A stretch of 64,000 bases of DNA from Candidatus Omnitrophota bacterium (GTDB lineage: Bacteria > Omnitrophota > Gorgyraeia > Zapsychrales > Fredricksoniimonadaceae). The DNA is taken from positions 76,563 to 140,562 of the forward strand of contig JADFXH010000001.1 of assembly GCA_015233675.1 (NCBI GenBank), given 5' to 3'. Below the pieces are notes generated by a model. The model did no database searches, had not been told where the DNA came from, and worked only from the letters and a program-made list of their open reading frames with translations. Made by a program: the position numbers and the translations under genes. This document shows positions 1 through 54,325 of the stretch, piece by piece (the first letter of the stretch is position 1; each line of letters starts with the position of its first letter).

Positions 1-758
1 GTCCAATAAGGCGTTGTCGACTGTAAAGGCCAGGTAAGAAAGGGCTGTCCTGTTTTTAAACAATATATTCGTATAGATGCCGCTGCAATCATAAAGACTG
101 GGCATAACCAAATTAATACTTTGCGCCTCTTAGGCGCCTGCGCAACCATCGTCCTCACCGCCAAAATAACCAATGGACAGAAGAAATAAAATTGTTCTAA
201 GACAACCAGGGTCCACGTATGCGCTAAAAGCGGGTTAAGCGGGAAATAATTCTGTAAAAATAATAAATGATACACCGCAACCAGCATGCCGCCCGCGATG
301 GCCTCATGGCCTTGCATTATATAAATAGACATACTCACCAGAACCATCAGGCAATAGCAGGGATAAATCCTAAAAAAACGCCGCTGATAAAAATGGACAA
401 CATTGCCCGAGTTAATTTCCTTGCGGGAAAGGATCCCTGTGATCAAAAAACCGCTGATCACCAAAAAAATTTCCACGCCCAGAACACCCTTTAACTGGCT
501 TATAAAATACTCTATATTTTTATAAAATCCTGTTAAATTTATTCCAAAAACTTCATAAGACTTAAAGTAAACCCATTTAAGGATCGGCGGATCGCTTGCA
601 AATAAATAATCAAGTGTAAAGCCGCGGCGGATGTGGTGTGCTAAAATCATAATGATGGCTATAGCCCGAAAGCCATCTAAGAAAGGATAAAATACTTTAG
701 TGGAGGATATAGCAGTGTCAGTTTTTTTATTACTCTTATGGGACAATTTGTTGTCCAA
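1..758 (-). CDS. acyltransferase family 3 (OafA-like) membrane protein, N-terminal part only; the ORF runs off the left edge
   Basis: Own minus-strand translation gives ...FLDGFRAIAIIMILAHH...FYQRRFFRIYP...LAHTWTLVVLEQFYF..., typical acyltransferase_3 motifs. It is open to position 1, so it is absent from the ORF track. Only TTG start candidates exist (746 or 758). Confidence 0.6.
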   Translation of the reverse strand, partial: MDNKLSHKSNKKTDTAISSTKVFYPFLDGFRAIAIIMILAHHIRRGFTLDYLFASDPPILKWVYFKSYEVFGINLTGFYKNIEYFISQLKGVLGVEIFLVISGFLITGILSRKEINSGNVVHFYQRRFFRIYPCYCLMVLVSMSIYIMQGHEAIAGGMLVAVYHLLFLQNYFPLNPLLAHTWTLVVLEQFYFFCPLVILAVRTMVAQAPKRRKVLIWLCPVFMIAAASIRIYCLKTGQPFLTWPLQSTTPYW

Positions 759-2718: not shown

Positions 2719-5144
2719 TTTAAAAGACCAACCCTTTCCCCGGCATATTGAGCCGCTGTGCTATTTTTATATTTAGCCAGGACCTCCAAATACATTTTTA
2801 AGGCATCGCCTTTGCGCTCAAGGCGTTCAGAAATTTTGGCGGCACGCAATAAACTCTCGGAGCAAAAATAGTCATTATCATAGATGGTTGCCACTAAAAT
2901 ATATAATTTAAGCGCTTCACCAAAATTGCCCTGGGAACCTTCGAGGTTGGCCATCTCAAATCTGGCGTGCGCCGTGACCGTATAGTCATCAGGATTTTCA
3001 TCTAAAGCTTTTTTAAATTCTTGCTTGGCCTCATCAAATTTATTGGCCTTCATTAAACATAAACCATAGCCGATATGCGCGCTGCCGGTATACACATTCT
3101 TTTCCTTTGACGAGGTAACCTGGCTATAAATTTTATCTGCCTCATCGCAGCTGCCCTGTCCCCGCAAGGCTTCGGCCTTAAAATATTCTATTTCCAATAG
3201 GCTTGACTGGGAGAATTTTTTTTCGGCCAAGGCGGCAATGCGCAAAACATCATCATATTTTTGTAACTTTAGATATTCATTACAAACCCAAACATAGGTC
3301 TTTATTTGTAAATCATTTTGGTCCGCCTTGCTGATCAATTGGTCAAAATAAGTCCTGGCTTGGTCTTCTTTTTTCTGTTCCAAATAAATGATCGCCAAAT
3401 TCTTAAGAGCAGCAAGATAAAATTTGCCTTCTTCTTTCTGTCCATCGACTTGGGCATAAGCAGCCAGGGCTTGATCGCTATTGCCTAAAAGCTGTTGATC
3501 AAACCCTAATAAAAAATAAGCGGAATTAGGCCTTTGAACAGATTCAGGCTTTGCCAGATATCCCTGCAATAATTTGACCGCTTCCTGAAGATGATTATTT
3601 TTGCCGTAAGTATCTGCCAGAATAAGCAGGACTTCGCTGTATTTTTCCCCGTTTGGAAATGCCTTTATATATTCTTGGGCATTACTGATGATCTCATTCA
3701 CATCTGAGGATTGGACAGAGGTCATGACCGCGTCGAACAAAGCTTCGCTTTTCAAATTAGGATCATCCTGAGTGTTGTAATATTTCAAGAAAAGAACTTC
3801 CGACTCTTTATTCCTGCCCATTTGGCGGCGGGCATGAGCCTCACCCAAAAGGGCAGATTTTACAAAACGGGACTCCGGAAAATTTGAACTAACATTCTCA
3901 AAAAAATTAAACGCATGATCATAATCTCCAAGGCCGTAATAGCCCTGAGCTTTTAAAAAGAAATTTTCATCCGCACTGCCGGTATTCTCAGAGGAATAGG
4001 CATCCAATAATGCCACGCCGTCTTTATACTTCTTCTCTCTAATCAGAATGTCTGCTTTCTTAATAAAAATTTTGGCCCTCTCATTAGATTTTAATGCCGG
4101 GAGAGCAAGCATACGGTCCAAAAGTTCATTGGCCTGTTCATATTTCTTCAACTCTATGTAAGCCAGCACTGCCGCAAAATGAATTGAATAAAAGGTGTCA
4201 TCATTTTTGATCTTTTGAGCGTCTTTTTGATACTCATTTAATAATTCGTCGTACTGCCCCAAATTAAAATAAGATAGAAGTAAATTAGCCAAGGCTTCAT
4301 TAGTATATTCCAGATTGGGATATTGGCTTATTACCTGTCCAAAACCTTTGACCGCATCTGCATATTTGCCGGATAAAAACTGAAGTTCGGCGGCCCTGTA
4401 ATTTAACTCGCCTTTTAAAGAATCATCCCCTGCTAGCGACATTGATTTTGCATAGGCGTCCATAGCTTCACTGTAATGCCCGTTTTGTGCCTGTATTTGC
4501 CCGATTTCTTTTAAGGCATAAGCTGTGTATGCAGACGCCCCCTCAACCTGGGCTGCCTTTTGAAAATAATCCAGGGCAGAAGCAATATCTATTTTGCCTT
4601 GATAAGCTTGGGCCGTATAAAAATAAAAAGATTGAAGCATCTCCCCTTTTAACTGCTTTTGAGCTTCGATGGATGTTAAATCTTTGAGGGCCTCATCATA
4701 TTTTTTCTGTTGAATGTCTATCTGGCCCAGACGCAATAAACTCATCGGCAATTGCTCTGAATTAGGATAAAGCTGGTTAAACCGGTTAAAAGCATCAACT
4801 GCTTTATTGAAATCCTGAGATAAAAAATACCCTTCACCTAAAGACAAATATGCTTCCGGCAAAGAGGGGCTGTGCGGATAATCACTGATAAACTTCTGGT
4901 ATTGGGAAATGGCCATATCATACATGCCGCGAGAAAGCAAACCTTGAGCAAAATCCAGTTGATCTGTTTCTTGTTGTATAGAAAAATTTACCTGTCCATT
5001 TCCCGAAGCCAAAGGACCTTCGGTTTTCTTAGAAGGTATCGCAGTCACAAAGCCCGGCTTTACAGATTCCTGCGCATAAACAGGCATTGAACCTGCCCAA
5101 AAAAACAAAGAAATGCCAATAATAAAAATGGGCTTGTGACTCAT
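2715..5144 (-). CDS. secreted tetratricopeptide (TPR) repeat protein
   Basis: Signal peptide (MSHKPIFIIGISLFFWAGSMPVYA) and many A/Y/L-periodic TPR-like repeats. Abuts exbD with no gap. Confidence 0.75.
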   Translation of the reverse strand: MSHKPIFIIGISLFFWAGSMPVYAQESVKPGFVTAIPSKKTEGPLASGNGQVNFSIQQETDQLDFAQGLLSRGMYDMAISQYQKFISDYPHSPSLPEAYLSLGEGYFLSQDFNKAVDAFNRFNQLYPNSEQLPMSLLRLGQIDIQQKKYDEALKDLTSIEAQKQLKGEMLQSFYFYTAQAYQGKIDIASALDYFQKAAQVEGASAYTAYALKEIGQIQAQNGHYSEAMDAYAKSMSLAGDDSLKGELNYRAAELQFLSGKYADAVKGFGQVISQYPNLEYTNEALANLLLSYFNLGQYDELLNEYQKDAQKIKNDDTFYSIHFAAVLAYIELKKYEQANELLDRMLALPALKSNERAKIFIKKADILIREKKYKDGVALLDAYSSENTGSADENFFLKAQGYYGLGDYDHAFNFFENVSSNFPESRFVKSALLGEAHARRQMGRNKESEVLFLKYYNTQDDPNLKSEALFDAVMTSVQSSDVNEIISNAQEYIKAFPNGEKYSEVLLILADTYGKNNHLQEAVKLLQGYLAKPESVQRPNSAYFLLGFDQQLLGNSDQALAAYAQVDGQKEEGKFYLAALKNLAIIYLEQKKEDQARTYFDQLISKADQNDLQIKTYVWVCNEYLKLQKYDDVLRIAALAEKKFSQSSLLEIEYFKAEALRGQGSCDEADKIYSQVTSSKEKNVYTGSAHIGYGLCLMKANKFDEAKQEFKKALDENPDDYTVTAHARFEMANLEGSQGNFGEALKLYILVATIYDNDYFCSESLLRAAKISERLERKGDALKMYLEVLAKYKNSTAAQYAGERVGLLK

Positions 5145-7572: not shown

Positions 7573-8031
7573 CTATTTCCCGTACATGGCTTGTAACTGA
7601 GCCTCTGAAGGGACTTGGTCATAATATTCCCCTTGCGGCCCGACATAACCGTTCCCGGATCTTTTAAGGACGACTGCCGTGTACCCCCCGTTGCTATTGG
7701 AAACATTAACAGTGACAGAGTCTCCAGAATATGTTGCCGATGGCACAACCACAGGAGCTGGTTGAGTTACAATGACCGGCGCTGGCTGAGGAGGCGGCTC
7801 CGGCTTTTGAATTTGAGAACCTACTGCCGCCCCAGCGACGGCACCCACCGCACCTCCAATGAGCATGCCGGCCCCGGTATCATGGCTTTGATGGCCTATG
7901 ACGCCTCCGGCAACTGCGCCAAGAAGCCCTCCGGCAACAGCACCTTCACCCTCATTATTATAAGGATTAGCACAGCCGGAAATACCGGCTAAAAAAACAA
8001 TCACCATGGACAAATAAAAACATTTTTTCAT
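7573..8031 (-). CDS. glycine-zipper lipoprotein (paralog 1)
   Basis: Lipobox LAGISGC, a glycine-zipper stretch GGLLGAVAGGVIG...GGAVGAVAGAAVG, and a Pro-rich linker. Close paralog of 13228..13686. Confidence 0.6.
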   Translation of the reverse strand: MKKCFYLSMVIVFLAGISGCANPYNNEGEGAVAGGLLGAVAGGVIGHQSHDTGAGMLIGGAVGAVAGAAVGSQIQKPEPPPQPAPVIVTQPAPVVVPSATYSGDSVTVNVSNSNGGYTAVVLKRSGNGYVGPQGEYYDQVPSEAQLQAMYGK

Positions 8032-9879: not shown

Positions 9880-9917
9880 ACTCTTTTTGTATTTCTCAGG
9901 TATATTTTATATCTGCA

Positions 9918-10259
9918 TTACCCTATGGCCGGGGCCCCTTCTTCACTGGTACGGATTCGAATACAGCGCGGTAAATCCAGAACAAAAATTTTACCATCCC
10001 CTATTTTTCCCGTCCGGGCGCCTTTGATAATAGCCTTGATCGTTGGTTCCACAAAATTTTCGTTTACCGCAATTTCAAGACGAACTTTACGCAAAAGATT
10101 GCCTGTTTCCCTGACTCCGCGGTAAAATTCATCCACTCCTATTTGACGCCCATGGCCTAAAACTTCTGTAACGGTGATCAAATTAACTTCTGCCGCATAA
10201 AGCTCTTTTTTAACTTCTTCCAACCTATGCGGCTGTATAATAGCAATCACTAATTTCAT
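9918..10259 (-). CDS. glnB: nitrogen regulatory protein P-II
   Basis: 113 aa, [10 protein letters not shown]...GHGRQ...GDGKIFV...IRIRT. Downstream of amt. T-loop residue 51 is Glu, not Tyr. Confidence 0.9.
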
Positions 10260-10281
10260 ACGCCCTCCTGTTTATTCTATC

Positions 10282-10526
10282 GGTTCTGTCAAAATTCTTG
10301 CAGGTTATGCATGAGAAGAGATATTATTTGCTCAACGGGATATTTTCGCCGTTGGCGTCGGTTTACAGCAAAAATGTTCAAAAGCTTCTCTTCATTTGGA
10401 ACATTTTTGCTGTAAATCCTAGCCAACTTTTGGCGAAAAATCCCTGAATGTTTCGCAAACAATATCTCTTCTCATGCATAACTCCCAATCCTTGCGCAGG
10501 CCGTCCATTGCATTTTTCACTAGCAT
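10282..10526 (-). repeat. intercistronic framework element with family-A hairpin cargo (amt|glnB spacer)
   Basis: Left end ggttctgtcaaaattcttgcagg and a degenerate right end catttttcactagc. It fills the amt stop to glnB RBS spacer. Confidence 0.7.
10305..10482. mobile_element. family-A long inverted repeat (MITE-like hairpin, 178 bp)
   Basis: Arms ttatgcatgagaagagatatt.../...aatatctcttctcatgcataac. Nearly identical to 48175..48352. A short derivative lies at 21734..21812. Confidence 0.75.
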
Positions 10527-10532
10527 CAGCCC

Positions 10533-11771
10533 TTAGTCCAAAATAGTATAGGCTCTTTCGTGATGTTGGCTTAAGTCCAGCCCTATAATTTCTTCCCCTG
10601 CAGTAACCCTCATCGGGATAATACGATTGACAACATTACAAATGATCCATGTGACGCCTGCGCAGTAAGCAATGGTAATAAGAGCACACTTAATTTGAAT
10701 TAATAATTGTACACCATTACCTAATAAAAGTCCGTTAGAACCCGCTGCATTCACGGCTTTAGTGGCTAATATACCGGTCGCGAACATGCCCCAAAACCCG
10801 CCTACGGCATGCACACCAAAAGCATCGAGAGAATCATCATATTTGAATTTTTGTTTTAAAATACCTACCGCAAAAAAACTAAGGACGCTAACAACACACC
10901 CTATGATCAATGCCCCTGTAAAATCCACAAAACCCGCAGCCGGAGTTATTGCAACTAATCCCGCTATCGCTCCTGTGACAGAGCCAAAAATAGTAGGCTT
11001 GCCTGTCAAAATCCATTCCAAGGCCGCCCAACTAACAACTGCCGCTCCCGCAGCCATATTAGTCGTCACAAACGCATTGACCGCCACCGCATTACAAGCT
11101 AATGCGGATCCCGCGTTAAAACCATTCCATCCAAACCATAACAAACTTGCCCCTAAAACAACAAAAGGGATATTGTGTAAACTTGGATGGGAAATCCCAA
11201 TGCGCCGGCCCAGATACAAAGCCGTGACCAATCCGGCAATTCCACAGTTAATTTCAACAACCGTGCCTCCGGCAAAATCTAAAATTCCCCAACTGCGAAA
11301 TAATCCGCCCACTCCCCAGGCCATATGAGCAATAGGGCAATAAACAAACGTCAACCAAAGAACAGTAAATAATAAAAATGCCGAGAATTTTACCCTCTCT
11401 GCATACGCCCCCACAATAACCGCAGGGGTGATAACAGCAAACATGCATTGAAAGATCATAAAGGCCGCCTGAGGGATTGTCGCTGCATAATCCCCGTTGG
11501 GTGCCGCTCCTACACCTTTTAACATTACCGCATCGAACCCGCCAAAAAGCCAATTGCCTTTACTGAAAGCCAAACTATACCCGTAAATTCCCCATAACAC
11601 ACTAACCAGTGACAGGCACGCCATGCATTGCATCAAAACGCCTAACACATTTTTACGGCGAACCATGCCTCCATAAAAAAAACCTAATGCCGGTGTCATT
11701 AAAAGAACAAGCACCGCTGAGACCAGGACCCATGCTGTGTCCCCTGAATTGATTTGATTCATTGATTGCAT
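10533..11771 (-). CDS. amt: ammonium transporter Amt
   Basis: 412 aa, about 11 TM helices. Motifs include FAGGTVVEINCG and DDSLDAFGVHAVGG. Confidence 0.9.
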   Translation of the reverse strand: MQSMNQINSGDTAWVLVSAVLVLLMTPALGFFYGGMVRRKNVLGVLMQCMACLSLVSVLWGIYGYSLAFSKGNWLFGGFDAVMLKGVGAAPNGDYAATIPQAAFMIFQCMFAVITPAVIVGAYAERVKFSAFLLFTVLWLTFVYCPIAHMAWGVGGLFRSWGILDFAGGTVVEINCGIAGLVTALYLGRRIGISHPSLHNIPFVVLGASLLWFGWNGFNAGSALACNAVAVNAFVTTNMAAGAAVVSWAALEWILTGKPTIFGSVTGAIAGLVAITPAAGFVDFTGALIIGCVVSVLSFFAVGILKQKFKYDDSLDAFGVHAVGGFWGMFATGILATKAVNAAGSNGLLLGNGVQLLIQIKCALITIAYCAGVTWIICNVVNRIIPMRVTAGEEIIGLDLSQHHERAYTILD

Positions 11772-12664: not shown

Positions 12665-13000
12665 TCACCAATTATTTGGTTTATTATCCACTAGGTTAAT
12701 TATAGTGTTTTTACCATAAGCGATAACGTATTGGATAATCACAGGATCATCTAGCTTAATTTCTACTGATGTCATATGTTGAGAAGTAGACCAATATAAG
12801 ACTGCTTCAGGTCCGATATAAAATGTCATTACTGAATCTTTTGTTTGTATACTAATAAGGCCAGCCTCCACGCCCACTTTAACTACCTTCCCAGAAATAG
12901 TTTTTATATTCCGATCATTCATCACTTGCTGACAATATGCCGCACTAGATATAAAAACTGCTGTTAACACAACAAAAGCAATCACCTTAAATTTAAACAT
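12665..13000 (-). CDS. small secreted protein, unknown function
   Basis: The track ORF starts in repeat-derived sequence. The real start is probably ATG at 13000 (MFKFKVIAFVVLTAVFISSAAYC signal peptide), preceded by GGAAGGAGAG. Confidence 0.5.
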   Translation of the reverse strand: MFKFKVIAFVVLTAVFISSAAYCQQVMNDRNIKTISGKVVKVGVEAGLISIQTKDSVMTFYIGPEAVLYWSTSQHMTSVEIKLDDPVIIQYVIAYGKNTIINLVDNKPNNW

Positions 13001-13008
13001 TCTCTCTC

Positions 13009-13215
13009 CTTCCACATAATTCCACTAGTTTTCCTATTGATTAGGTCGGGCCAACGCCCTTCCGCATAATTCCACTATATTTTCCCACTGATTAGGTCGG
13101 GCCAACGCCCTTCCACATAATTCCACTAGTTTTCCCACTGATTAGGTCGGGCCAACGCCCTTCCACATAATTCCACTAGTTTTCCCACTGATTAGGTCGG
13201 GCCAACGCCCTTCCG
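13009..13215 (-). repeat. 50-nt RBS-bearing leader repeat, 4 tandem copies
   Basis: Unit cttccacataattccactagttttcccactgattaggtcgggccaacgcc, with copy starts at 13009, 13059, 13110 and 13160. The gene-proximal end provides the SD of 12665..13000. Confidence 0.85.
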
Positions 13216-13227: not shown

Positions 13228-13686
13228 TCACTTACCATACATAGCTTGCAACTGAGCCTCTGAAGGAATTTGATCATAATACTCCCCTTGCGGCCCGACA
13301 TAACCGTTCCCGGATCTTTTAAGCACGACTGCGGTATATCCTCCGTTGCTATTGGAAACATTAATAGTAATAGTGTCTCCGGAATATGTTGCCGATGGGA
13401 CAAACACAGGAGCTGGTTGGGTTACAATGACCGGCGCTGGCTGAGAGGGCGGCTCTGGCTTTTGAACCTGAGACCCTACTGCCGCCCCAGTGACGGCACC
13501 CACCGCGCCGCCAATAAGCATTCCAACTCCAGTGTTATGACTTTGATGCCCTATGACACCTCCAGCGACTGCACCAAGAAGGCCTCCGGCAACTGCCCCT
13601 TCACCGGCATTATTATAAGGATTAGCGCAACCGGAAATGACCGCTAAAAAAACGACAATAGTTAATTGATAGAAATATTTTTTCAT
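13228..13686 (-). CDS. glycine-zipper lipoprotein (paralog 2)
   Basis: Lipobox AVISGC. Aligns along its full length with 7573..8031, with only scattered substitutions. Confidence 0.6.
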   Translation of the reverse strand: MKKYFYQLTIVVFLAVISGCANPYNNAGEGAVAGGLLGAVAGGVIGHQSHNTGVGMLIGGAVGAVTGAAVGSQVQKPEPPSQPAPVIVTQPAPVFVPSATYSGDTITINVSNSNGGYTAVVLKRSGNGYVGPQGEYYDQIPSEAQLQAMYGK

Positions 13687-19852: not shown

Positions 19853-20284
19853 TTAAAGGTTCCCTATGTCTTTTCCGCCGATCACACGGATGCTGTTTTT
19901 AGCCAAAACCGCTATGGCTTTGTCCAGATCATCAAAGCGAAAGACCAAAATAGCTTTATTTGCCCGCTTCTCGACGAAGGCATACATGTATTCGATGTTG
20001 ACCTTATTTTCATCAAGGACTTTTAAAACTTTCGCCAATCCCCCCGGGTGGTCATCTACCTCAATAGCCACAATGTCCGTAATCGAAGCGATAAATTCAT
20101 GGACTTTAAGAATCTCCATGGCCTCTTGAGGCTTGTCCACAATCATGCGTAAAACGCCAAAATCTTCATTCTCGGCAATGGTCAGTGTTTTGATATCAAT
20201 CCCCTTCTCCCCCAAGACCCTTATGGCATCGTAAAGCCGACCTTTTTTATTCTCCAGGAATACTGAAATTTGGGTAATTTTCAT
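19853..20284 (-). CDS. ACT domain-containing protein (two ACT domains)
   Basis: 143 aa with a tandem ACT pattern. ACT genes are a common partner of paaK/ior genes. Confidence 0.7.
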   Translation of the reverse strand: MKITQISVFLENKKGRLYDAIRVLGEKGIDIKTLTIAENEDFGVLRMIVDKPQEAMEILKVHEFIASITDIVAIEVDDHPGGLAKVLKVLDENKVNIEYMYAFVEKRANKAILVFRFDDLDKAIAVLAKNSIRVIGGKDIGNL

Positions 20285-20297
20285 AAGCTGAATACTC

Positions 20298-20398
20298 CTT
20301 CCTTAAAATTCCATAAACCTTTCCATTGATTAGGTCGGGCCAACGCCCTTCCTTAAAATTCCATAAGCCTTTCCATTGATTAGGTCGGGCCAACGCCC
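20298..20398 (-). repeat. 50-nt RBS-bearing leader repeat, 2 tandem copies
   Basis: Copies start at 20298 and 20348. They fill the entire paaK stop to ACT start spacer. The 3' end reads AAGGAAGGAGT upstream of the ATG at 20284. Confidence 0.85.
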
Positions 20399-21697
20399 TT
20401 ATAATGACCTTTTATCAATGATACGTTTGGACTTGCCTTCGCTTCTTTCAATGGTCTTGGGCTCAACTAAACGGACCTTGACGCCGATGCCAAGCACCGA
20501 CTCAATTTCTTTGGCCACATGATGTTCAAAATTCTGCAGCTTTTTGACCTCATCCGAAAAAAATGATTCTTTAAGCTCAACTAAAACCTCCAGCTGATCT
20601 AAGCCCTTTTCTCGCTCGACCACAATTTGATAATGCGGCTGAGTGCCCTCAATGTTTAAAAGGACTTCTTCTATCTGCGAAGGGAAAACATTAATGCCCC
20701 GAACAACAATCATGTCATCAGTCCTCCCTAAAACTTTACTGATACGCGCAGACGTGCGGCCGCAAACACATTTTTCACAATCAATGGTCACAATGTCCCG
20801 GGTCCGGTAACGGATAAGAGGCATACCGACTTTAGTTAATGACGTGATCACCAATTCACCGCGACCAGAAGGGCCCACTGGCTTTAATGTCACGGGGTCA
20901 ATGACCTCAGGATAGAAAACATCCGAAAAAATATGCAGCCCTTTTTTACAATGACATTCACAGGCAACTCCCGGACCGATAATTTCCGAGAGGCCATAAA
21001 TATCAATTGCCTGGATGTCCCATCGTTCTTCAATATTCTGGCGCATAGCCTCGCTCCAGGGCTCGGCCCCCAAAATCCCGATTTGCCAATGACTTTTCTT
21101 AGGATCTAACCCGAGTTCCCTAGCTGTTTCTGCCATGTATAACGCATAAGAAGGTGTGCAGGCTAAAATCCTTGGCTTAAAATCCTGCATGATCTTAAGC
21201 TGACGCTTGGTCTGGCCGGAAGAACAAGGTATGACCGTCAGCCCTAAAAGCAAACTTCCGTAATGAAGCCCCAAACCGCCGGTAAAAAGTCCGTATCCGT
21301 AGGCGATCTGGATGATGTCACCCGGCAATGCACCCGCACAACACAGCGACCTGGCAATGACATCGGCCCACAGGTCAAGGTCTTCTTTACTATACCCCAC
21401 AACCGTGGGATTGCCGGTGGTGCCGCTGGATATATGAATTTCACGAATGTCCTTCATGGACGAAGAAAAAATCCCAAAAGGATAATTCTCCCTTAAATCA
21501 TCTTTAACGGTAAAAGGAAGCCTTACGATATCCTCAATGGATTTGACACTGCCGGGTGCAATTTTTGCCTCATCAAATTTCTTTTTAAAAACAGGAGATT
21601 TTTGATACACATAATCAACAATATGGCAGAGCCTTTGCGATTGAATTTTTTTTAGATCTTGCGGGTCCAAACACTCGATTTTTTCATTAAAAATCAT
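20399..21697 (-). CDS. paaK: phenylacetate-CoA ligase family (PaaK/F390 synthetase-like)
   Basis: 432 aa, SSGTTGNPT AMP-binding motif, YRTRD. Confidence 0.85.
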   Translation of the reverse strand: MIFNEKIECLDPQDLKKIQSQRLCHIVDYVYQKSPVFKKKFDEAKIAPGSVKSIEDIVRLPFTVKDDLRENYPFGIFSSSMKDIREIHISSGTTGNPTVVGYSKEDLDLWADVIARSLCCAGALPGDIIQIAYGYGLFTGGLGLHYGSLLLGLTVIPCSSGQTKRQLKIMQDFKPRILACTPSYALYMAETARELGLDPKKSHWQIGILGAEPWSEAMRQNIEERWDIQAIDIYGLSEIIGPGVACECHCKKGLHIFSDVFYPEVIDPVTLKPVGPSGRGELVITSLTKVGMPLIRYRTRDIVTIDCEKCVCGRTSARISKVLGRTDDMIVVRGINVFPSQIEEVLLNIEGTQPHYQIVVEREKGLDQLEVLVELKESFFSDEVKKLQNFEHHVAKEIESVLGIGVKVRLVEPKTIERSEGKSKRIIDKRSL

Positions 21698-21721: not shown

Positions 21722-21854
21722 GGTTCTTGCAAGTTATGCATGAGAAGAGATATTGTTTGCTCAACGGGATATTTTCGCCGTTGAGCAAACAATATCTCTT
21801 CTCATGCATAACACCCATTCCTTGCACACGCGTTTTCATATAACTTTTGACACT
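21722..21854 (-). repeat. intercistronic framework element with short family-A hairpin (iorB|paaK spacer)
   Basis: Truncated left end ggttcttgcaag and right end cttttgacactacc. The right end overlaps the last codons and stop of iorB. Confidence 0.7.
21734..21812. mobile_element. family-A inverted repeat, 79-bp deletion derivative (perfect ~34-bp stem)
   Basis: ttatgcatgagaagagatattgtttgctcaacgg / ccgttgagcaaacaatatctcttctcatgcataa. Confidence 0.75.
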
Positions 21855-24070: not shown

Positions 24071-24099
24071 TTAAGATGCTTCGCTTTGCTCAGCATGAC
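24071..24099. repeat. GAAGGATC/GTCATYCTGA-family REP-like repeat (single arm)
   Basis: ttaagatgcttcgctttgctcagcatgac, between iorA and metX. Confidence 0.55.
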
Positions 24100-24119
24100 G
24101 ATAGATTAGAGCCGTACGG

Positions 24120-25277: not shown

Positions 25278-26209
25278 ACCGTCCTCTCTTGAAAAAGCCA
25301 TGTAGATAAGTAACGCTCACCAGTATCCGGCAGGATAACCACAATGAGCTTCCCTTTGTTTTCTTTTCGTTTCGCTACTTGCAAAGCCGCCCAAAGAGCG
25401 GCACCGCTTGAAATGCCTCCCAGGATCCCTTCTTGTTTCGCAAGCTGTCTTGCGGTTTCTCCAGCGTCATCATTGCTGACTTTGATGACTTCATCTACAA
25501 CGGCACGATTTAAAACTTTCGGGATAAACCCTGCCCCTATCCCCTGGATTTTATGAGGGCCGGGCGCCCCTCCGGATAAAACAGGAGAAGCCGCAGGCTC
25601 AATAGCGATCGCCTGAAAAGAAGGTTTTCTTTTTTTTATGACTTCGGAAACTCCTGTAATTGTACCACCCGTTCCCACTCCGGAAATAAGAATATCAACT
25701 TGTCCATCAGTATCATTCCAAATTTCTTCAGCAGTTGTTTTACGGTGTATCTCGGGATTTGCGGGATTATTAAATTGCTGGGGCACAAAACTATTTGGAG
25801 TGACTTTGGCCAATTCTTCAGCTTTTTCAATAGCACCTTTCATGCCTTTTGCCCCTTCTGTTAAAACAAGCTCTGCCCCAAAAATCTTAAGCAATTGCCT
25901 GCGTTCGAGGCTCATCGTATCAGGCATGGTCAAGATAAGCTTATATCCTTTTGCCGCAGCGATAAACGCGAGGGCTATTCCTGTATTTCCGCTCGTAGGC
26001 TCTATGATCACCGAACTCTTATTTAAAACACCTCTCTTTTCCGCATCTTCAATAAGCGCTATCCCCAAACGATCTTTTACGCTTGAAAGCGGATTAAACG
26101 ACTCTATTTTTACGACTACTGTCGCTTCTGACCCTTCGGTAATCCGGTTAAGCTTCACTAAAGGGGTATTGCCGATGGTCTTTGTGATATCAGGATATAT
26201 TTTCCCCAT
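25274..26209 (-). CDS. cysK: cysteine synthase A / O-acetylserine sulfhydrylase
   Basis: 311 aa. PLP-lysine region NPLSSVKDR, then [12 protein letters not shown] and [10 protein letters not shown]. Confidence 0.85.
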
Positions 26210-26218
26210 AGCATGCTC

Positions 26219-26270
26219 CTTCCATATAATCCCACTAAGTTTTCCTATTGATTAGGTCGAGCCAACGCCC
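26219..26270 (-). repeat. 50-nt RBS-bearing leader repeat, 1 copy
   Basis: cttccatataatcccactaagttttcctattgattaggtcgagccaacgccc. It supplies the GGAAGGAGC SD of cysK. Confidence 0.8.
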
Positions 26271-26283
26271 TTATGCTTTAGTT

Positions 26284-32213: not shown

Positions 32214-32419
32214 GGTTCTGTCAAAATTTTGCTTGCCTTATGACGCGGGGCCTGTCCTTAGCCTCAACATTAAGGGGCTCCTTAGGCGGGGGCAACCTTA
32301 ACAGCAGCACCGACGGTAGTATTCCCTAAACAGCCCACTTGCGCAGGTGCCGTGCGCGCCTTAATATTGAGACCAAGGACACCCGCTGACGCATCTTTCA
32401 ATAAACCTTTATCGCTACC
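32214..32419 (-). repeat. family-B structured element, copy B1 (leader of glnN)
   Basis: About 206 nt. Framework ends ggttctgtcaaaatttt / aaacctttatcgctacc. 22-bp stem gtccttagcctcaacattaagg / ccttaatattgagaccaaggac. Confidence 0.8.
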
Positions 32420-33891: not shown

Positions 33892-34096
33892 GTTCTGTTA
33901 AAATTCCGCTTCTAGATGACGCGGGGCCTGTCCTTAGTCTCAACGTTAAGGGGCTCCTCAGGCAGGGGCAACCTTAACAGCAGCACCGATGATGGTTTTC
34001 CCTAAACCACCCACTTGAGCAGGTGCCGTGTGCGCCTTAACATTGAGACTAAGGACACCCGCTAATCCATGTTTTCATAAAACTTTTGACACTACC
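33892..34096 (-). repeat. family-B structured element, copy B2 (leader of the porin gene)
   Basis: 205 nt, collinear with B1 and B3. Ends agttctgttaaaattcc / aaaacttttgacactacc. Confidence 0.8.
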
Positions 34097-34310: not shown

Positions 34311-34643
34311 CTACAATGCCCCTTTTTCCCCGGTTCGAATCCTTATGGCGTCCTCAACGGACGAAATAAATATTTTTCCATCCCCTACTTCTCCCGTGTA
34401 AGCCGCTTTACGTATGGCTTGGACAAGGCCATCTACCTCCTCGTCTTTCGCCACAATATCAAGCTTTGTTTTTGTCATAAATTCGACTTTGTATTCTTTG
34501 CCACGCAGTGTTTTGGTCATGCCTTTTTGCTTTCCATGCCCCTCGATCTCGGTAAGCATAAGGCCGGGATGCCCGACTTTATGTAAAGCCTTTGCTACGT
34601 CACCGACTTTTGACGGACGAATTATCGCTTCTATTTTCTTCAT
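34311..34643 (-). CDS. P-II family nitrogen signalling protein (Tyr51 present)
   Basis: MKKIEAIIRP...GHGKQKG...RGKEYKVEF...GDGKIFISSVEDAIRIRTGE. The start at 34643 follows GGAAGGAGA. The track start lies in the repeat. Confidence 0.8.
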   Translation of the reverse strand: MKKIEAIIRPSKVGDVAKALHKVGHPGLMLTEIEGHGKQKGMTKTLRGKEYKVEFMTKTKLDIVAKDEEVDGLVQAIRKAAYTGEVGDGKIFISSVEDAIRIRTGEKGAL

Positions 34644-34653
34644 AGTTAATCTC

Positions 34654-34706
34654 CTTCCATATAATTCCATTAAATTTTTCTATTGATTAGGTCGGGCCAA
34701 CCGCCC
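34654..34706 (-). repeat. 50-nt RBS-bearing leader repeat, 1 copy
   Basis: cttccatataattccattaaatttttctattgattaggtcgggccaaccgccc, directly upstream of the PII start. Confidence 0.8.
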
Positions 34707-34725
34707 TTGGTTTAACTCCCCCTAA

Positions 34726-34755: not shown

Positions 34756-36633
34756 TTATATAGCCCATACGCCATCATCCGCGGTACGGATGCGCCTAGC
34801 TTGGGATGCGTCGATAACAAAGATCTTCCCGTCTCCGACATTTCCAGTTCTAGCCCCTTCACTGATAATGTCCATGACAGCCGGGACATCCCATTCTTTA
34901 ACCACACAGTCCACTTTAACTTTTGGAAGAAAATTAATATCGCCATTTTCTTTATCATCATTAATACTGCCTTTTTGGCGGCCAAAACCTCTCACCTTCG
35001 TGACAGTCATCCCCATGATGAAATCTTCCTGGCGCAGGGCTTCAACCACCAGGTTAAGATACTCCGGTCGAATAATGGCCGAAACCATTTTTAACTTATA
35101 TGATTTGTTCATCGTTGTGACGGCAACATAAAACAAGCTTATGAAAGCCCATGCACCTGCGATACCAAAACATATCCATGCTTCATTCTTGGCATCATTA
35201 TTTCCGATGATATACAGATAAAGAATGGCAGCAACCATGATGATATTGGCGAAAAGCCCCAATATAGGTACAAAACCATGTTTCAACACATTAAAATCCG
35301 CTCTTTTTTTAAAAGCGATAAAAGCGGTTAGACAAGTCATCCCATAAAGAATAAATGTCCCAAGGTTCGATGCTAACGTAATACCGGTTAAACCAACGAC
35401 TGACCACACCCCGATACCACCTATAATAGAGGAAATGATGGCCAATACCCAAATAGCAACGTGGGGCGTGCTGAATTCTCCGTGCATAAACCCTAACAAT
35501 TCCGGGAATTCCCTGTCTTCAGCCATGGCACAGCTGACACGAACAGCGGTATTCATACAGCTTAATGTTGTTCCGATGATCGCGATAGCAACGGTAATCG
35601 CAATTGTGATCATCAAGCCAAACCCGATCCCTCCCAACAGATTATCTCCCAAGAGTTTTGCTAAATCGCCGATAGGAGCACTTGAAGCTGCGGCGGCATC
35701 AAGACCCATAACAGCTTTTCCTGCTGCGGTCCCGGCAAGTTTATCGCTGATCATTAATCCCGTACAAAAATATTCAAACAAATAAGCAAACAATCCTTGT
35801 ATTACTAAAGCCAGAATGATCGCTTTAGGAATATTCTTTTGAGGCTCTTTGGTTTCAGCGGCAAGCGCCGTACAACTTTCAAAACCAACGAGGATCAATA
35901 TAGCAATGGTTGATTGCACCATCACACCCATTAATGAATGTGGTTTTATAACATCCAAAGCTCCGGTAAATGACCAAGCTACCGTATGTTGCGGATTGGC
36001 CACTCGATACCAAATAGCCAAACAGCTAAAGATCACTAAAGAAACAAGCTGGATTCCATTGATCCAAATTGAAGTCAGGGTTGAGCCGGTTATGCCGCGA
36101 TAAGCGATATAAGCACAAACAAACGTAAAAACGACTCCAACACCAACAAGCTCAGGGTTGGTCAAAGTTTTGCCTGTAAACTGGGTATAGATGTAGCCCA
36201 GCAACATCGCCATCATCGCCACCATGACGCCCGGATAAACCCAATAAAATAGATGCGCTGACCATGCAGTAATTAGTTTGGCAAAACGTTTGCCAGTAAA
36301 AGGAGAATCTTTTTCAGGAGTTCCCTCAACTTTCGTTTTAGAAAAAGTCTTTTCCACAAAATAGCAGACACTTTTAAAACCCGCTTCCGGATAAATCCCT
36401 GCAAGCTCTGCATAAGAAATGGCAGACAAGAACGCCACTATTAAAGCTACTATGATACCCGCCCAAATATCACTGGCAACTGAACTACCATCAGGGGCGG
36501 TTGCCCCTGCCTGTAACTGATACGTAATCCACAAAAACGCCCCCGGAGCGATAAGAGCCATAGCGTTTACGGTCGCACCCAACAATCCAAGAGTAGGTTT
36601 AACCACCGGTTTTGTTAAATCAACTGTAGCCAT
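34756..36633 (-). CDS. APC-family permease fused to a C-terminal P-II domain
   Basis: About 500 aa of 12-TM permease. The last ~110 aa read KMVSAIIRPEYLNLVVEAL...VRGFGRQKG...FLPKVKVDCVV...GDGKIFVIDASQARRIRT, a complete PII fold signature. Confidence 0.75.
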   Translation of the reverse strand: MATVDLTKPVVKPTLGLLGATVNAMALIAPGAFLWITYQLQAGATAPDGSSVASDIWAGIIVALIVAFLSAISYAELAGIYPEAGFKSVCYFVEKTFSKTKVEGTPEKDSPFTGKRFAKLITAWSAHLFYWVYPGVMVAMMAMLLGYIYTQFTGKTLTNPELVGVGVVFTFVCAYIAYRGITGSTLTSIWINGIQLVSLVIFSCLAIWYRVANPQHTVAWSFTGALDVIKPHSLMGVMVQSTIAILILVGFESCTALAAETKEPQKNIPKAIILALVIQGLFAYLFEYFCTGLMISDKLAGTAAGKAVMGLDAAAASSAPIGDLAKLLGDNLLGGIGFGLMITIAITVAIAIIGTTLSCMNTAVRVSCAMAEDREFPELLGFMHGEFSTPHVAIWVLAIISSIIGGIGVWSVVGLTGITLASNLGTFILYGMTCLTAFIAFKKRADFNVLKHGFVPILGLFANIIMVAAILYLYIIGNNDAKNEAWICFGIAGAWAFISLFYVAVTTMNKSYKLKMVSAIIRPEYLNLVVEALRQEDFIMGMTVTKVRGFGRQKGSINDDKENGDINFLPKVKVDCVVKEWDVPAVMDIISEGARTGNVGDGKIFVIDASQARRIRTADDGVWAI

Positions 36634-36840: not shown

Positions 36841-37365
36841 CTACCTTGCACTAGAATTTTTTAATTTTTTGCACTTTTCCCTGATTTTTCCTTCAAATTT
36901 CACTACGCTAACATGAGAAAGCCCAAGCCGCTGGGCTATTTCACGGGTAGTCCATCCTTGAAGATAAAAAAAAGCAATTTCTTTTTCTTTCCGGCTTAAT
37001 TCATTCTTGAAAACTTCTTCCATTAAAGTATCTATATCAAAATCTTCCTCAACAGGAGTTTCTTGCCGCAATGACAAAACATCTTGCAGTTTGAAACTTC
37101 CTTCATCTATCGGCATATTCAATCTCATCAAAGATGTTTTATCCTGAACCTTGCGGATATGATTCTTTAAATAGAAAAAGCAGCTTTGTAAAACGTAGCT
37201 GTCTGTCTTATCTGACAATTTGCCATCATTGTAATCAACCCAAAGTTGCAAGACAGCCTCTTGATACAAATCTTCCTCAGAAAAAGATTGACAAGATCCG
37301 TGAATCTTATAAACGATGCCCTTTAATTTGGGCGATATTCTCTCGATTAATTCTTCAAAAGTCAT
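36841..37365 (-). CDS. sigma-70 family (ECF-like, regions 2 and 4) RNA polymerase sigma factor
   Basis: Region-2-like DLYQEAVLQLWVDY and a region-4 HTH (GWTTREIAQRLGLSHVSVVKFEGKIREK). It starts 10-12 nt after the glnB stop. The ATG at 37365 is preferred over the GTG at 37377. Confidence 0.65.
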   Translation of the reverse strand: MTFEELIERISPKLKGIVYKIHGSCQSFSEEDLYQEAVLQLWVDYNDGKLSDKTDSYVLQSCFFYLKNHIRKVQDKTSLMRLNMPIDEGSFKLQDVLSLRQETPVEEDFDIDTLMEEVFKNELSRKEKEIAFFYLQGWTTREIAQRLGLSHVSVVKFEGKIREKCKKLKNSSAR

Positions 37366-37377
37366 TTTACCTTTCAC

Positions 37378-37719
37378 TCAACCAATCGCCAAAGCCCCTT
37401 CCTCACCGGTGCGAATACGTATACAACGGGGTAAATCAAGGACGAAAATCTTACCATTGCCGATTTTTCCATTGTACGCGCCTTTGATGATTGCTTGAAT
37501 TGTTGGTTCTACAAAATCATCATTGACGGCAATTTCAATTTGAACCTTCCTTAGCAAATTTCCCGTTTCGCGGACGCCCCGATAAAATTCATCTACGCCA
37601 ACCTGACGACCGTGGCCTAAAACTTCAGAAACCGTAATCAAATTTACTTGAGCCGCATAAAGCTCTTTCTTGACTTCATCGAGTTTATAAGGCTGGATTA
37701 TTGCAATGACTAATTTCAT
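37378..37719 (-). CDS. glnB: nitrogen regulatory protein P-II (paralog of 9918..10259)
   Basis: 113 aa, collinear with the other glnB with few substitutions. Confidence 0.9.
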   Translation of the reverse strand: MKLVIAIIQPYKLDEVKKELYAAQVNLITVSEVLGHGRQVGVDEFYRGVRETGNLLRKVQIEIAVNDDFVEPTIQAIIKGAYNGKIGNGKIFVLDLPRCIRIRTGEEGALAIG

Positions 37720-37741
37720 AAGACCTCCTGTTTAATACTAT

Positions 37742-37943
37742 GGTTCTGTCAAAATTCTGCTTCTAGATGACGCGGGTCCTGTCCTTAGTTTCAACGTTAA
37801 GGTGCTCCTCAGGCAGGGGCAACCTTAACAGCAGCACCGATGGTGGTTTTCCCTAAACCGCCCACTTGAGCAGGTGCCGTGCGCGCCTTAACATTGAAAC
37901 TAAGGACACCCGCTAATCCATGTTTTCATAAAACTTTTGACAC
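37742..37943 (-). repeat. family-B structured element, copy B3 (amt|glnB spacer, leader of glnB)
   Basis: 202 nt. Ends ggttctgtcaaaattctgc / aaaacttttgacac. Stem gtccttagtttcaacgttaagg / ccttaacattgaaactaaggac. Confidence 0.8.
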
Positions 37944-37956
37944 AAACTATTTCAAC

Positions 37957-37977
37957 GGGCGGACACAAGGTCCGCCC
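37957..37977. repeat. REP-like hairpin GGGCGGAC-acaag-GTCCGCCC
   Basis: Perfect 8-bp stem immediately after the amt stop. Confidence 0.7.
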
Positions 37978-37984
37978 CTACTGT

Positions 37985-39235
37985 TTAGTCCAATATTGTA
38001 TACGCACGTTCATGGTGTTGGCTCAAATCCAATCCCATGATCTCTTCATCTTGTTGAGCCCGTATACCCATTACTTTATCTACCACAAAACAAATAATTA
38101 AAGTGCCGATTGCTGTGTACGCGATGGTAGTAGCACAGGCGATAAACTGGACCCAAACCTGACCTGGATTGCCTGCAAATAGACCATCCGCCCCGCCTGA
38201 AGGGTTAATCGCTTTAACGGCAAATAAACCTGTCGCCATCGCTCCCCAAAAACCGCCGATGCCGTGTACACCAAAGGCATCAAGAGTGTCATCATAACCA
38301 AGCCTGGGTTTTACGAATGCCACCATGGAATAGCACAATACGCTGACTAATAACCCGATCCACAAGGCTCCGCTTACGTCCACAAACCCGCAAGCAGGAG
38401 TAACAGCAACAAGCCCTGCTACAGCACCGGAAGCGGCTCCTAAAGTTGTTGGTTTACCCGTAAAAATCCATTCCATCACAGCCCAGCTAATAGCAGCGGC
38501 AGCGGTAGCCGTATTTGTATTGACAAATGCCTGCGCTGCTAATCCATTAGCCGCTAATGCGGAACCGGCATTGAAACCAAACCAACCAAACCACAACAAA
38601 GAAGCGCCTAAAATAATAAACGGGACATTATGCATCCCCTGTTTATCTGTACCGACCCTTTTCCCTAAATATAATGCGGTAACTAACCCTGCAACCCCAG
38701 CGTTAATATGAACAACTGTACCCCCGGCAAAATCTTTGGCCCCTAAACCATTCAGCCATCCTCCAACACCCCAAACCATATGGGCTATCGGGCAATAGAC
38801 AAAGGTCAGCCATAAAGCCGTAAATACTAAAAATGATGAGAATTTCATACGTTCCGCATAAGAACCTATGATGAGCGCAGGAGTAATAACTGCAAACATA
38901 GCCTGGAAAATCATAAAAGCCAAATGCGGAATAGTAGCGGCATAGTCAGGGTTCGCTTCCTGTCCTACTCCTTTAAGCATAAACCAGTCCAATCCTCCTA
39001 TAAAAGGATTCCCTTTGCCAAAGGCAAGGCTGTAACCGTAAACGACCCATAAAACACTAATCAAAGCAAGACACATAAAACATTGCATCAAAACACCTAA
39101 TATATTTTTACGTCTTACCATGCCCCCGTAAAAGAAAGCCAAACCCGGCGCCGTCATTAGCAAAACTAATGCCGACGATGTTAGAACCCATGCTGTATCC
39201 CCTGCACTGATCGGATTAATTGGTGCTGTACCCAT
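37985..39235 (-). CDS. amt: ammonium transporter Amt (paralog)
   Basis: 416 aa, collinear with 10533..11771. Motifs FAGGTVVHINAG and DDTLDAFGVHGIGG. Confidence 0.9.
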   Translation of the reverse strand: MGTAPINPISAGDTAWVLTSSALVLLMTAPGLAFFYGGMVRRKNILGVLMQCFMCLALISVLWVVYGYSLAFGKGNPFIGGLDWFMLKGVGQEANPDYAATIPHLAFMIFQAMFAVITPALIIGSYAERMKFSSFLVFTALWLTFVYCPIAHMVWGVGGWLNGLGAKDFAGGTVVHINAGVAGLVTALYLGKRVGTDKQGMHNVPFIILGASLLWFGWFGFNAGSALAANGLAAQAFVNTNTATAAAAISWAVMEWIFTGKPTTLGAASGAVAGLVAVTPACGFVDVSGALWIGLLVSVLCYSMVAFVKPRLGYDDTLDAFGVHGIGGFWGAMATGLFAVKAINPSGGADGLFAGNPGQVWVQFIACATTIAYTAIGTLIICFVVDKVMGIRAQQDEEIMGLDLSQHHERAYTILD

Positions 39236-48127: not shown

Positions 48128-48151
48128 ATATTTCCTTTATTATGTTTCCGC

Positions 48152-48448
48152 GGTTCTGTCAAAATTCTTGCAGGTTATGCATGAGAAGAGATATTATTTG
48201 CTCAACGGGATATTTTCGCCGTTGGCGTCGGTTTACAGCAATAATGTTCTAAAGTTTCTCTTCATTTGGAACACTCTTGCTGTAAATCCTAGCCAACTTT
48301 TGGCGAAAAATCCCTGAAAGTTTCGCAAACAATATCTCTTCTCATGCATAACACCCAATTCTTGCGCAGGCTTATACTGATATAAAAATTTTAACCAGAA
48401 CAATATATCAGTGTCGGCCGTCCATTGCTTTTTTGCTTTTGACACTAC
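48152..48448 (-). repeat. intercistronic framework element with family-A cargo and small-hairpin module (OMF|MFP spacer)
   Basis: ggttctgtcaaaattcttgcagg [family A] acccaattcttgcgcagg cttatactgatat...cagtgtcggccgtccattgc...ttttgacactac. The right end contains the OMF stop codon. Confidence 0.75.
48175..48352. mobile_element. family-A long inverted repeat (MITE-like hairpin, 178 bp)
   Basis: Same length and nearly the same sequence as 10305..10482. Confidence 0.75.
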
Positions 48449-50853: not shown

Positions 50854-51078
50854 TTAATCTCTTGATTTCCCAATGAGTAAACCCAATAAAAGGCAACCGA
50901 TCCCAACGCCCGCTACAACCGGCCAGGGATTTTCATGTGTTTTTTTGTCAATATCGGAAGCCAATTTTGCCGCCTGCTCACAGCCTTGTTTTAATTTTTT
51001 CTCTGCTTCAAATAGAGCGTTTTTTAACCTAGCTTCTCCTTCTTCAATGCTTGAAATGATCCTTCCGTGTTCGTCCAT
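50854..51078 (-). CDS. ElaB/YqjD/DUF883-family tail-anchored protein
   Basis: 74 aa. MDEHGRIISSIEEGEARL... is helical, with ENPWPVVAGVGIGCLLLGLLIGKSR as a C-terminal anchor. The track ORF's first 89 aa are a translated repeat. Confidence 0.6.
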   Translation of the reverse strand: MDEHGRIISSIEEGEARLKNALFEAEKKLKQGCEQAAKLASDIDKKTHENPWPVVAGVGIGCLLLGLLIGKSRD

Positions 51079-51087
51079 AAACAGCTC

Positions 51088-51191
51088 CTTCCTTAAAATT
51101 CCACAAACTTCTCCATTGATTAGGTCGGGCCAACCACCCTTCCTTAAAATCCCACTAACCTTCTCATTAATTAGGTCAGGCCAACCGGCCC
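51088..51191 (-). repeat. 50-nt RBS-bearing leader repeat, 2 copies (second diverged)
   Basis: Copies start at 51088 and 51139. The 3' end reads AAGGAAGGAGCTGTTTATG. Confidence 0.8.
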
Positions 51192-51425
51192 TCCCGGTTC
51201 TTTTATAGTAAAGATACAAAAGCACTTTACACATGAGCTTCAAAGTCTGCCATTGGCTAAAGTCATATTTTATTGACTTTTTTCCACTTTTGGGCTGGCA
51301 ATCTTTCTTTACCAATGAAAAACCTGGCAAAATGGTACCGCTCATTGGTCAAACTTCTAAATCTATCTCTGAACGGTGAACGGTCTATTAAAGATAAAAA
51401 GGCTCGAGAAGCCTGTCTGTTTATA

Positions 51426-54173: not shown

Positions 54174-54325
54174 ATCTCCCCCCTCATTTTTAGGTTTTCT
54201 TGGGGGAATTTATGTCATCAAGCCAGGGGAGACTTGTTTTTTGTCAGTAATTCCAATTATGGGGACACTTCTGTCTGAACTTGTTGTGTCACATTAAGTT
54301 AATCAGAAACGGTCTGTATTAAATT

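Follow-up and report, generated by a model that had tools for sequence, protein, structure and literature searches.

A 50-nucleotide repeat embedded in the Shine-Dalgarno sequences of unrelated genes of Candidatus Omnitrophota, probably a tolerated insertional minisatellite

In a 64-kb stretch of the genome of a Candidatus Omnitrophota bacterium (contig JADFXH010000001.1, positions 76,563 to 140,562; hereafter the window), ten copies of a unit of 50-51 nucleotides (nt) are spread over five loci. All lie on the minus strand, and the last unit of each locus supplies the Shine-Dalgarno sequence (SD) of the gene that follows. We read the unit, with a probability of about 0.6, as a non-autonomous, lineage-restricted interspersed minisatellite of Candidatus Omnitrophota, similar in kind to the mycobacterial interspersed repetitive units (MIRU), which is embedded in the SD and survives by rebuilding the ribosome-binding site (RBS). 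Its features, namely precise insertion with a tetranucleotide direct repeat, patchy occupancy of sites, amplification in place, targets without relation to one another and probable decayed copies in other lineages, are those of a mobile or insertional repeat that is tolerated. Numbers without a prefix are window coordinates. Array lengths taken from short-read metagenome assemblies are uncertain, and the four copies of the focal array (13006..13212) and especially the eight at metagenome locus L094 may be miscounted.

The ten copies and five loci of a preliminary description of this DNA are confirmed. Tandem Repeats Finder (TRF) reports the focal array at 13008-13214 (period 50, 4.1 copies, 94% matches) and further arrays at 20297-20400 (2.1 copies) and 51087-51186 (2.0 copies); allowing at most three mismatches, there are nine matches to the 22-mer GGGCGTTGGCCCGACCTAATCA, all on the minus strand, and none in 100 shuffles; and an nhmmer profile built from the units returns exactly ten units at the five loci. 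Each unit carries at its 5' end the mini-hairpin GGGC-GTTG-GCCC, which had been described correctly and is recurrent, followed by a near-invariant box, GACCTAATCA. Read on the minus strand, the arrays end in GGAAGGAG, and an ATG follows after 5, 10, 6, 7 and 6 nt; the last unit is thus close to the start codon, as had been claimed, at a distance of 5-10 rather than 6-10 nt.

The same arrangement is seen in other genomes. An exact 18-mer had no match in a collection of one genome per GTDB species, from which the family is absent or in which it is masked, and the exact core had no match in viral contigs. Metagenomes were scanned with a degenerate 17-mer, a pattern independent of location, and true units were sorted with the profile from what were mostly chance matches. 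Units in 1 to 8 tandem copies lie on at least ten metagenome contigs (L002, L027, which is the same as L087, L036, L054, L057, L091, L094, L111 and L116 among them), representing at least nine or ten independent loci; L054 is from Omnitrophota, and L087 shows synteny with the window, the DNA identity being about 72%. The matches in L098 and L034 were set aside as chance, since each falls within a coding open reading frame (ORF). Together with the five arrays of the window, the ten metagenome arrays among the matches listed make 15, one being a likely assembly duplicate, and so 14 loci. All 15 arrays, which come from the 64 kb of the window and from short metagenome contigs, close with a unit that ends GGAAG|GAG, 4-10 nt ahead of a start codon and oriented as the gene is; this extends the claim made for the window, and no copy away from a start codon or inverted was found among them. 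On the other side, the context ranges from a directly adjoining stop codon (0 nt) to non-coding DNA over several hundred nt, and the association is therefore with the 5' end of the gene that follows. In the metagenome arrays, these genes have no relation to one another; they code for a dehydrogenase, an epimerase, an acetolactate synthase-like protein, an aminotransferase, lipoproteins and an antitoxin-like protein.

Filled sites compared with empty ones show an insertion. GGGCG is preceded by AA in 13 of 14 arrays (P about 1e-12; background AA frequency 0.098), and the unit is therefore bounded by AAGG at each end, giving AAGG-[46 nt-AAGG]n-AG. At the paaK-ACT junction, the filled site of the window reads ttaTAAGG[2 units]AAGGAGtattcagcttATG, where the paaK stop codon TAA (20399-20401) supplies the AA of the 5' AAGG; the empty site reads ttaTAAGGGGGttgggtATG in L205/L206, and six other relatives have spacers of -4 to 24 nt. 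These paaK relatives (L201-L211, 80-84% identical) keep the operon iorA-iorB-paaK-ACT-thioesterase with a repeat-free paaK-ACT spacer throughout. At the lpxI-aspC junction, the filled site in L054 reads gcaTAAatacatAAGG[46 nt]AAGGAGttatATG and the empty site in L214/L216, at about 90% AspC identity, reads gcaTAAtcttAAGGAGatttgtATG. Over all compact repeat-free junctions, the proteins of the relatives are 80-91% identical.

A further comparison can be made between paralogous leaders. Three leaders in the window have AATTTTGACAG-N16-AGGAGG-N4-ATG in common, and the cysK leader is a AATTTTGACAG-N16-AGGAG module with the unit between AAGG and AG; when the unit is excised, TTGACAG-N16-AGGAG remains, with the 16-nt spacing of the three paralogous leaders. 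The cysK orthologue in L121 lacks the repeat, and the homologue of the 74-aa gene of the window in L002 has a GGAGG leader of its own without it. No repeat copy was found in about 110 kb from the paaK relatives, about 110 kb from the aspC relatives or 80 cysK loci, and occupancy of homologous genes differs among the family-bearing genomes themselves (L002, L087). Two orthologous empty sites and the cysK leaders are three independent comparisons, and on this sequence evidence the units are insertions in an AAGGAG SD, and recent ones, rather than sites evolved in place.

Once inserted, units multiply and can probably decay. Identity between units is 96.3% within arrays versus 83.0% between arrays, and five units of L094 have a private CTGGTCA change in common; arrays therefore grow by local duplication. 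At L213 14420-14514, between genes for a biotinyl/lipoyl-carrier protein and MGDG synthase, there is a two-unit relic in which the hairpin is lost and a GGAAG SD is kept, at a position where L214 (14298-14301) and L212 (14368-14372) have a spacer of 2-3 nt; its sequence is probably that of a decayed copy. L220 has at 9930-10000 a diverged, shortened unit-like leader (AAGGGATCGTCACCTCGAATCAATATAAACGCATAATTTATGGAAGGAG) before the sole detectable homologue (53% identity) of the 111-aa gene that follows the focal array. This leader is possibly another decayed copy; it might go back to an early insertion, or the family might even have arisen from it. With the profile it gives only a weak match (E = 0.42), and the likeness may be due to chance.

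In the mechanism that we propose, the unit would enter the purine tract of an SD at AAGG|AG. With its own end being ...GGAAGG, it would leave AAGG on both sides and rebuild a strong, unstructured GGAAGGAG SD at the normal distance from the start codon, so that the gene that is hit would stay translatable and the insertion be tolerated even within operons. A repeat that lands in an SD and regenerates it would explain how a selfish repeat colonises tight operon junctions without killing the downstream gene. The 50-nt unit would then amplify locally to 2 to at least 8 copies, by slippage or by unequal exchange between units. In the RNA, it would form part of a 5' untranslated region (UTR) or an intercistronic spacer, presumably co-transcribed with the flanking genes and nearly neutral for their expression, and the purine tract of the last unit only would serve as an SD; that of an internal unit runs on as GGAAGGGC, would be partly paired in an extended hairpin and has no usable start codon behind it. 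Spread may depend on a trans-acting enzyme that recognises the invariant hairpin and GACCTAATCA, or on microhomology-mediated template switching between SDs. The invariance of hairpin and box argues for recognition by some factor; template switching is the enzyme-free alternative.

Several observations weigh against this reading of the repeat, and uneven conservation is the main one. Pairwise identity, calculated with one unit per array (n=14), is 94% for the first 23 nt (hairpin and GACCTAATCA), 70% for the middle 25 nt, which include a conserved TGGAATT block, and 94% for the terminal SD; the first 23 nt reach this value between arrays and genomes although the common genes are only about 72% identical in DNA. 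Purely neutral insertions would decay evenly, so something selects the 5' segment, whether for competence to spread or for a function at each copy. This is the main fact that a neutral reading leaves without explanation, and it may leave room for an RNA-binding regulator or for an enhancer or insulator role. The hairpin is retained in 12 of 13 distinct variants; the changes are one that is compensatory (GGTC/GACC), three that give sense-strand G-U pairs, a re-registered stem and a single mismatch. In addition, the profile finds no degenerate or decayed copy in the window at E<=10, and the sole Y1 transposase gene there, of the type associated with repetitive extragenic palindromic (REP) elements (RAYT), is a pseudogene with different flanking repeats of its own.

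A further reading is that of an SD-seeking mobile cassette whose invariant hairpin and GACCUAAUCA box are read by a dedicated trans-acting factor, either an insertion enzyme acting after AAGG on single-stranded DNA or an RNA-binding regulator; we consider this possible but rather unlikely. About 8% of the window genes (5 of roughly 60) have the unit as leader. If such a cassette exists and this proportion holds genome-wide, several per cent of the genes would carry one transposed leader, and a post-transcriptional regulon would have been made by transposition into ribosome-binding sites; a reader of the conserved 5' box would mean regulatory wiring by transposition in Omnitrophota.

A post-transcriptional regulon could also be the reason for the spread of the family. 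The units would bind CsrA/RsmA, another protein or a small RNA recognising the hairpin and GACCUAAUCA box, the SD would be occluded or exposed, tandem units would raise affinity, and the cassette would have spread by wiring genes in. The preliminary description had proposed a CsrA/RsmA-type array from three GGA motifs per unit. That number is right for the focal array. Of the 14 arrays compared, all conserve two blocks with a GGA, UGGAAUU and AAGGAG, which are separated by about 12 nt and the second of which is the SD; the first GGA is present in only 5. The conserved pair is consistent with a regulon, as are the share of window genes with the unit as leader and the 5' 23 nt, where compensatory and wobble changes on the sense strand point to selection on an RNA or single-strand feature; precedents exist in Neisseria REP2/CREN elements (PMC3184786) and in the TAACTGA repeats of Beggiatoaceae (PMC4679880). 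However, in minimum free energy and centroid folds of arrays and single units the GGAs are unpaired, and the sole recurrent hairpin loop is GUUG, so that none of them lies in a predicted hairpin loop. The best conserved segment, hairpin and GACCTAATCA, is without a GGA, and CsrA binding thus fails to explain its conservation. The insertions are recent and not common to genomes at homologous genes, the targets have no common function, and there are probable decayed copies. A search of the window and of the metagenome and relatives' loci gave no csrA, hfq or fliW gene, a result that is uninformative for the whole genome. Conservation and predicted structure thus give no support to a CsrA/RsmA-type array, although CsrA might bind the conserved UGGAAUU...AAGGAG pair, and we regard a regulon in general as unlikely.

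Predicted structure bears likewise on the idea that the unit is a selected translation cassette, that is, a structure-free, purine-rich standby site with a strong SD, which uncouples a gene from the upstream cistron and whose 5' hairpin stabilises a processed end. The leader is indeed predicted to be unstructured apart from the hairpin, with no larger or significant fold found (z-scores -1.3 to +0.8) and no match in Rfam at the gathering score (only noise at E up to 10). The stem is of 4 bp (6 with the outer GG/CC pairs), is preceded by AAGG and has no GTAG; in internal units, the predicted fold uses the preceding GGAA to lengthen it to GG-AA-GGGC/GCCC-GA-CC, which partly buries an SD-like GGAAGGG. 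The SD has its 4-10 nt spacing in every case, and several insertions replace very tight or overlapping operon junctions. With the unit in place, the predicted energy for opening -20..+15 is reduced at two of five loci (4.9 vs 8.2 kcal/mol at the focal gene, 7.7 vs 9.6 at the 74-aa gene); there is no predicted gain at the other three, and removal of the unit in silico gives no consistent change in the predicted opening energy of the RBS. A translation cassette leaves the invariant GACCTAATCA box and the growth to 4-8 units unexplained, a 4-bp hairpin is weak, and close relatives manage with compact junctions; we find it quite unlikely.

Another possible source of mobility is a Y1 (HUH) enzyme of the RAYT or IS200 type, which would recognise the hairpin and adjacent box on single-stranded DNA and move the unit as a REP-like element. 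It would cut behind AAGG and place the unit behind AAGG in the template of the lagging strand, which for co-oriented genes is the sense strand. The window does contain a RAYT gene (53646-54173; NCBIfam NF047646, 85.3 bits, cut-off 80), both unit ends have the identical tetranucleotide, and the hairpin variants keep pairing only on the sense strand, by G-T/G-U wobble. Nearly all genes of the window are on the minus strand, the plus strand has a steady negative GC skew, and all copies of the unit are on this G>C-skew, coding strand. However, the RAYT gene has an in-frame stop and inverted repeats of its own (GGGGACACTTC, two copies only), and no 50-nt unit flanks it; the units never form inverted pairs, they have one short hairpin each without a GTAG-type head, and no RAYT gene is found on any other family-bearing contig. 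Nor does the unit have terminal inverted repeats: unlike a miniature transposable element with inverted repeats (MITE), it has the AAGG direct repeat only. Movement by such an enzyme is therefore improbable in our view. As to the RAYT gene itself (minus strand), it has one in-frame TAA (GKF*QRLDF...MDNHAHWLI) and adjoins a tRNA gene (54329-54404); the 13-nt inverted repeat that flanks it, at 53675-53687 and 54261-54273, is found only there. A direct association with the unit was rejected, given the different flanking repeats and the lack of any unit within 2.4 kb, and the gene is kept as a lead only.

Finally, the unit might combine a promoter with an RBS, like the cassettes of Neisseria (REP2/CREN) or Borrelia (IR), with a promoter in the unit driving the downstream gene. 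The units do lie directly upstream of genes and carry an RBS, as REP2 and IR-A/B do (PMC3184786). However, no sigma-70-like promoter or terminator was found on the repeat strand at the five loci, in a scan that covers sigma-70-like promoters only; units stand 0-17 nt past upstream stop codons in conserved operons, and the start codon is outside the unit. We consider a promoter cassette very improbable. The unit also has no conserved ORF: its period of 50-51 nt is not a multiple of 3, and there are TAA/TAG stops in two frames.

The five loci are listed in Table 1. The focal array starts 17 nt past the stop codon of a glycine-zipper lipoprotein gene (13228-13686), and the NCBI annotation of an identical 111-aa protein (P0241) starts at the ATG given in the table. 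The unit before the PII gene comes after a stem-loop downstream of a permease-PII fusion gene (34756-36633). In the array before the 74-aa protein gene, the first unit is the most divergent one, with a GGCC/GGCC hairpin and TGACCTAATTA.

Table 1. Repeat arrays of the window and parts of the focal array
Feature	Position	Strand	Details
Focal array, four tandem units and ends	13006..13212	-	Units 13160-13210, 13110-13160, 13059-13110 and 13009-13059; AA 13211-13212; terminal GAG 13006-13008
SD GGAAGGAG from the 3' end of the last focal unit	13006..13013	-	5 nt before ATG 12998-13000 of the 111-aa gene 12665-13000
Example of the 5' mini-hairpin, one per unit	13199..13210	-	Box GACCTAATCA follows at 13189-13198
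Two-unit array between paaK and ACT-domain gene	20295..20400	-	SD 20295-20302; ACT-domain gene ATG 20282-20284
Single unit before cysK	26216..26272	-	SD 26216-26223; cysK ATG 26207-26209
Single unit before PII gene	34651..34707	-	SD 34651-34658; ATG 34641-34643
Two-unit array before 74-aa protein gene	51085..51192	-	SD 51085-51092; ATG 51076-51078

The cysK, PII and ACT identities given to the downstream genes by the preliminary description are confirmed. Its secreted protein is the 111-aa protein, which has a signal-peptide-like N-terminus and no family match, and the name ElaB-like is not confirmed for the 74-aa protein, which has no match in Pfam or NCBIfam. The best relative of the cysK product is from a Candidatus Omnitrophota metagenome-assembled genome (87% identity). 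The PII protein starts MKKIEAIIRP, and the cysK and ACT proteins start as in their orthologues. Since the downstream proteins thus begin at the family starts, ORFs that start inside the unit are artefacts; three mechanical ORFs (12665-13015, 34311-34670 and 50854-51345) begin within the repeat, and their N-terminal extensions are false, as had been suspected. A public gene call shows the same error: aspC in L054/L218 (Ga0207034_1061, P0121) begins in the repeat, which adds MDFYGRSY. More than 100 aspC orthologues begin MLHVNRR, and among them only L054's own protein has a repeat-derived extension. In practice, gene callers can be expected to start ORFs inside the unit, and short-read assemblies may mis-size arrays or break at them. 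The contig L116, of 5.3 kb, has at its two ends three-unit arrays, 496-646 (-) and 4744-4893 (+), in inverted orientation and with near-identical flanks; it was probably assembled wrongly, as a palindrome around the repeat.

The repeat contributes much to the supply of AAGGAG SDs in the window. The minus strand has 26 AAGGAG hexamers, about ten of which are true SDs, and five of these ribosome-binding sites are second-hand, coming from the repeat. The unit is also a defined, portable 50-nt leader from an uncultured phylum.

In gene content the window matches a Gram-negative anaerobe, with genes for RND efflux and an outer-membrane factor, for Tol-Pal, iorAB-paaK and PPDK, and with several amtB-PII pairs. 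Two sets of recent paralogues are present: the glycine-zipper lipoprotein genes 7573-8031 and 13228-13686, with 88% DNA identity over 300 nt, and the amtB-PII pairs 9904-11771 and 37364-39235, with 70-74%. There are also two genes for amino-acid permeases, one of which has a PII domain at the C-terminus, and a PII gene that stands alone; given the amtB-PII pairs, the permeases and the PII genes, the window is a nitrogen-centred region.

Other repeats share the window with the 50-nt unit. A TTGACA-type leader module, GCA(A/G)GAATTTTGACAG-N16-AGGAGG-N4-ATG, occurs at 10294, 26296, 32226, 37754 and 48164 (-), directly upstream of five genes: two PII genes, the glutamine synthetase (GS) type III gene, cysK, where the repeat splits it, and an RND subunit gene. 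The distance between its TTGACA and the SD is too short for a -35 box. At 10281-10501 and 48151-48371 (96% identical), and in a short form at 21733-21812, there is a MITE-like element whose terminal inverted repeats are 35 nt long (GTTATGCATGAGAAGAGATATTGTTTGCTCAACGG); the positions are upstream of a PII gene, upstream of an RND membrane-fusion gene and between iorB and paaK. A 201-nt repeat with 26-nt inverted arms 77 nt apart has three copies (32216-32416, 33892-34092 and 37743-37943; 79-96% identity), upstream of the GS type III gene, an alginate-export-like porin gene and a PII-amtB pair, and is possibly a nitrogen-regulated leader or element. A 30-nt repeat, TTAAGATCCTTCGCTTCGCTCAGAATGACA, forms another small family of three copies in spacers downstream of genes (908-937, 24071-24100 and 58311-58340; TRF 58332-58373).

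Several known systems can be compared with the Omnitrophota unit; a literature search for descriptions of an Omnitrophota repeat, or of CsrA in Omnitrophota, found nothing relevant and no earlier account of this family. Known CsrA sites are A(N)GGA motifs in hairpin loops. The unit resembles CsrA/RsmA leaders and the CsrB/RsmZ sponges in having repeated modules with several GGAs, one of them over the SD (trivial for any purine-rich SD), and differs in that its GGAs are in unstructured sequence, that one of the three is not conserved and that the most conserved part is GGA-free. The stems of REP elements are longer and come with a conserved GTAG head; the elements form inverted pairs, are found for the most part 3' of genes, and flank their own RAYT gene. 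With REP and REPIN elements, the unit has in common that it is a short extragenic element around a GC-rich hairpin, with a RAYT gene in the window; the Omnitrophota copies are all direct, however, with no inverted pairs, no GTAG and no unit flanking the RAYT gene.

The TAACTGA heptamer repeats of marine Beggiatoaceae (PMC4679880) stand a few nt upstream of the start codons of unrelated genes and were proposed, without a test, to bind S1, Csp or CsrA. They too are tandem direct repeats near start codons, but their unit is 7 nt long, replaces the canonical RBS and has no hairpin, and there is no empty/filled-site evidence for them; the Omnitrophota unit provides the RBS. Neisseria REP2 (CREN) and Borrelia IR-A/IR-B (PMC3184786) are elements of 120-150 bp with a promoter, an ATG and two stem-loops, which are not tandemly amplified. 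Like the unit, they are dispersed just upstream of unrelated genes, bring an RBS and have a stem-loop near the 5' end; in contrast, the unit is 50 nt long with one 4-bp hairpin and no promoter-like site, it forms arrays, and the start codon and spacer are outside it and differ by locus.

MIRU (Supply et al. 1997, reviewed in PMC3184786) are repeats of 40-100 bp in the spacers of operons, often tandem, co-transcribed and variable in copy number. The likeness lies in a tandem unit of the 40-100 bp class (here 50-51 nt in 1-8 copies) that is intergenic, oriented with the gene (here 15/15), present in filled and empty sites and bounded by a tetranucleotide direct repeat. A MIRU, however, has a small ORF that overlaps the flanking stop and start codons, which gives translational coupling, whereas the Omnitrophota unit has no conserved ORF and the start codon is 4-10 nt outside it. 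The unit is also embedded in the SD, which it supplies, and occurs in 5' UTRs far from upstream genes as well; it belongs to another phylum, in a host of 43% G+C, and presumably has no sequence relation to MIRU. The family thus differs from all of the systems compared: it is an SD-embedded 50-nt unit without a promoter, start codon, coupling ORF or terminal inverted repeats, and with a strongly conserved 5' hairpin-box.

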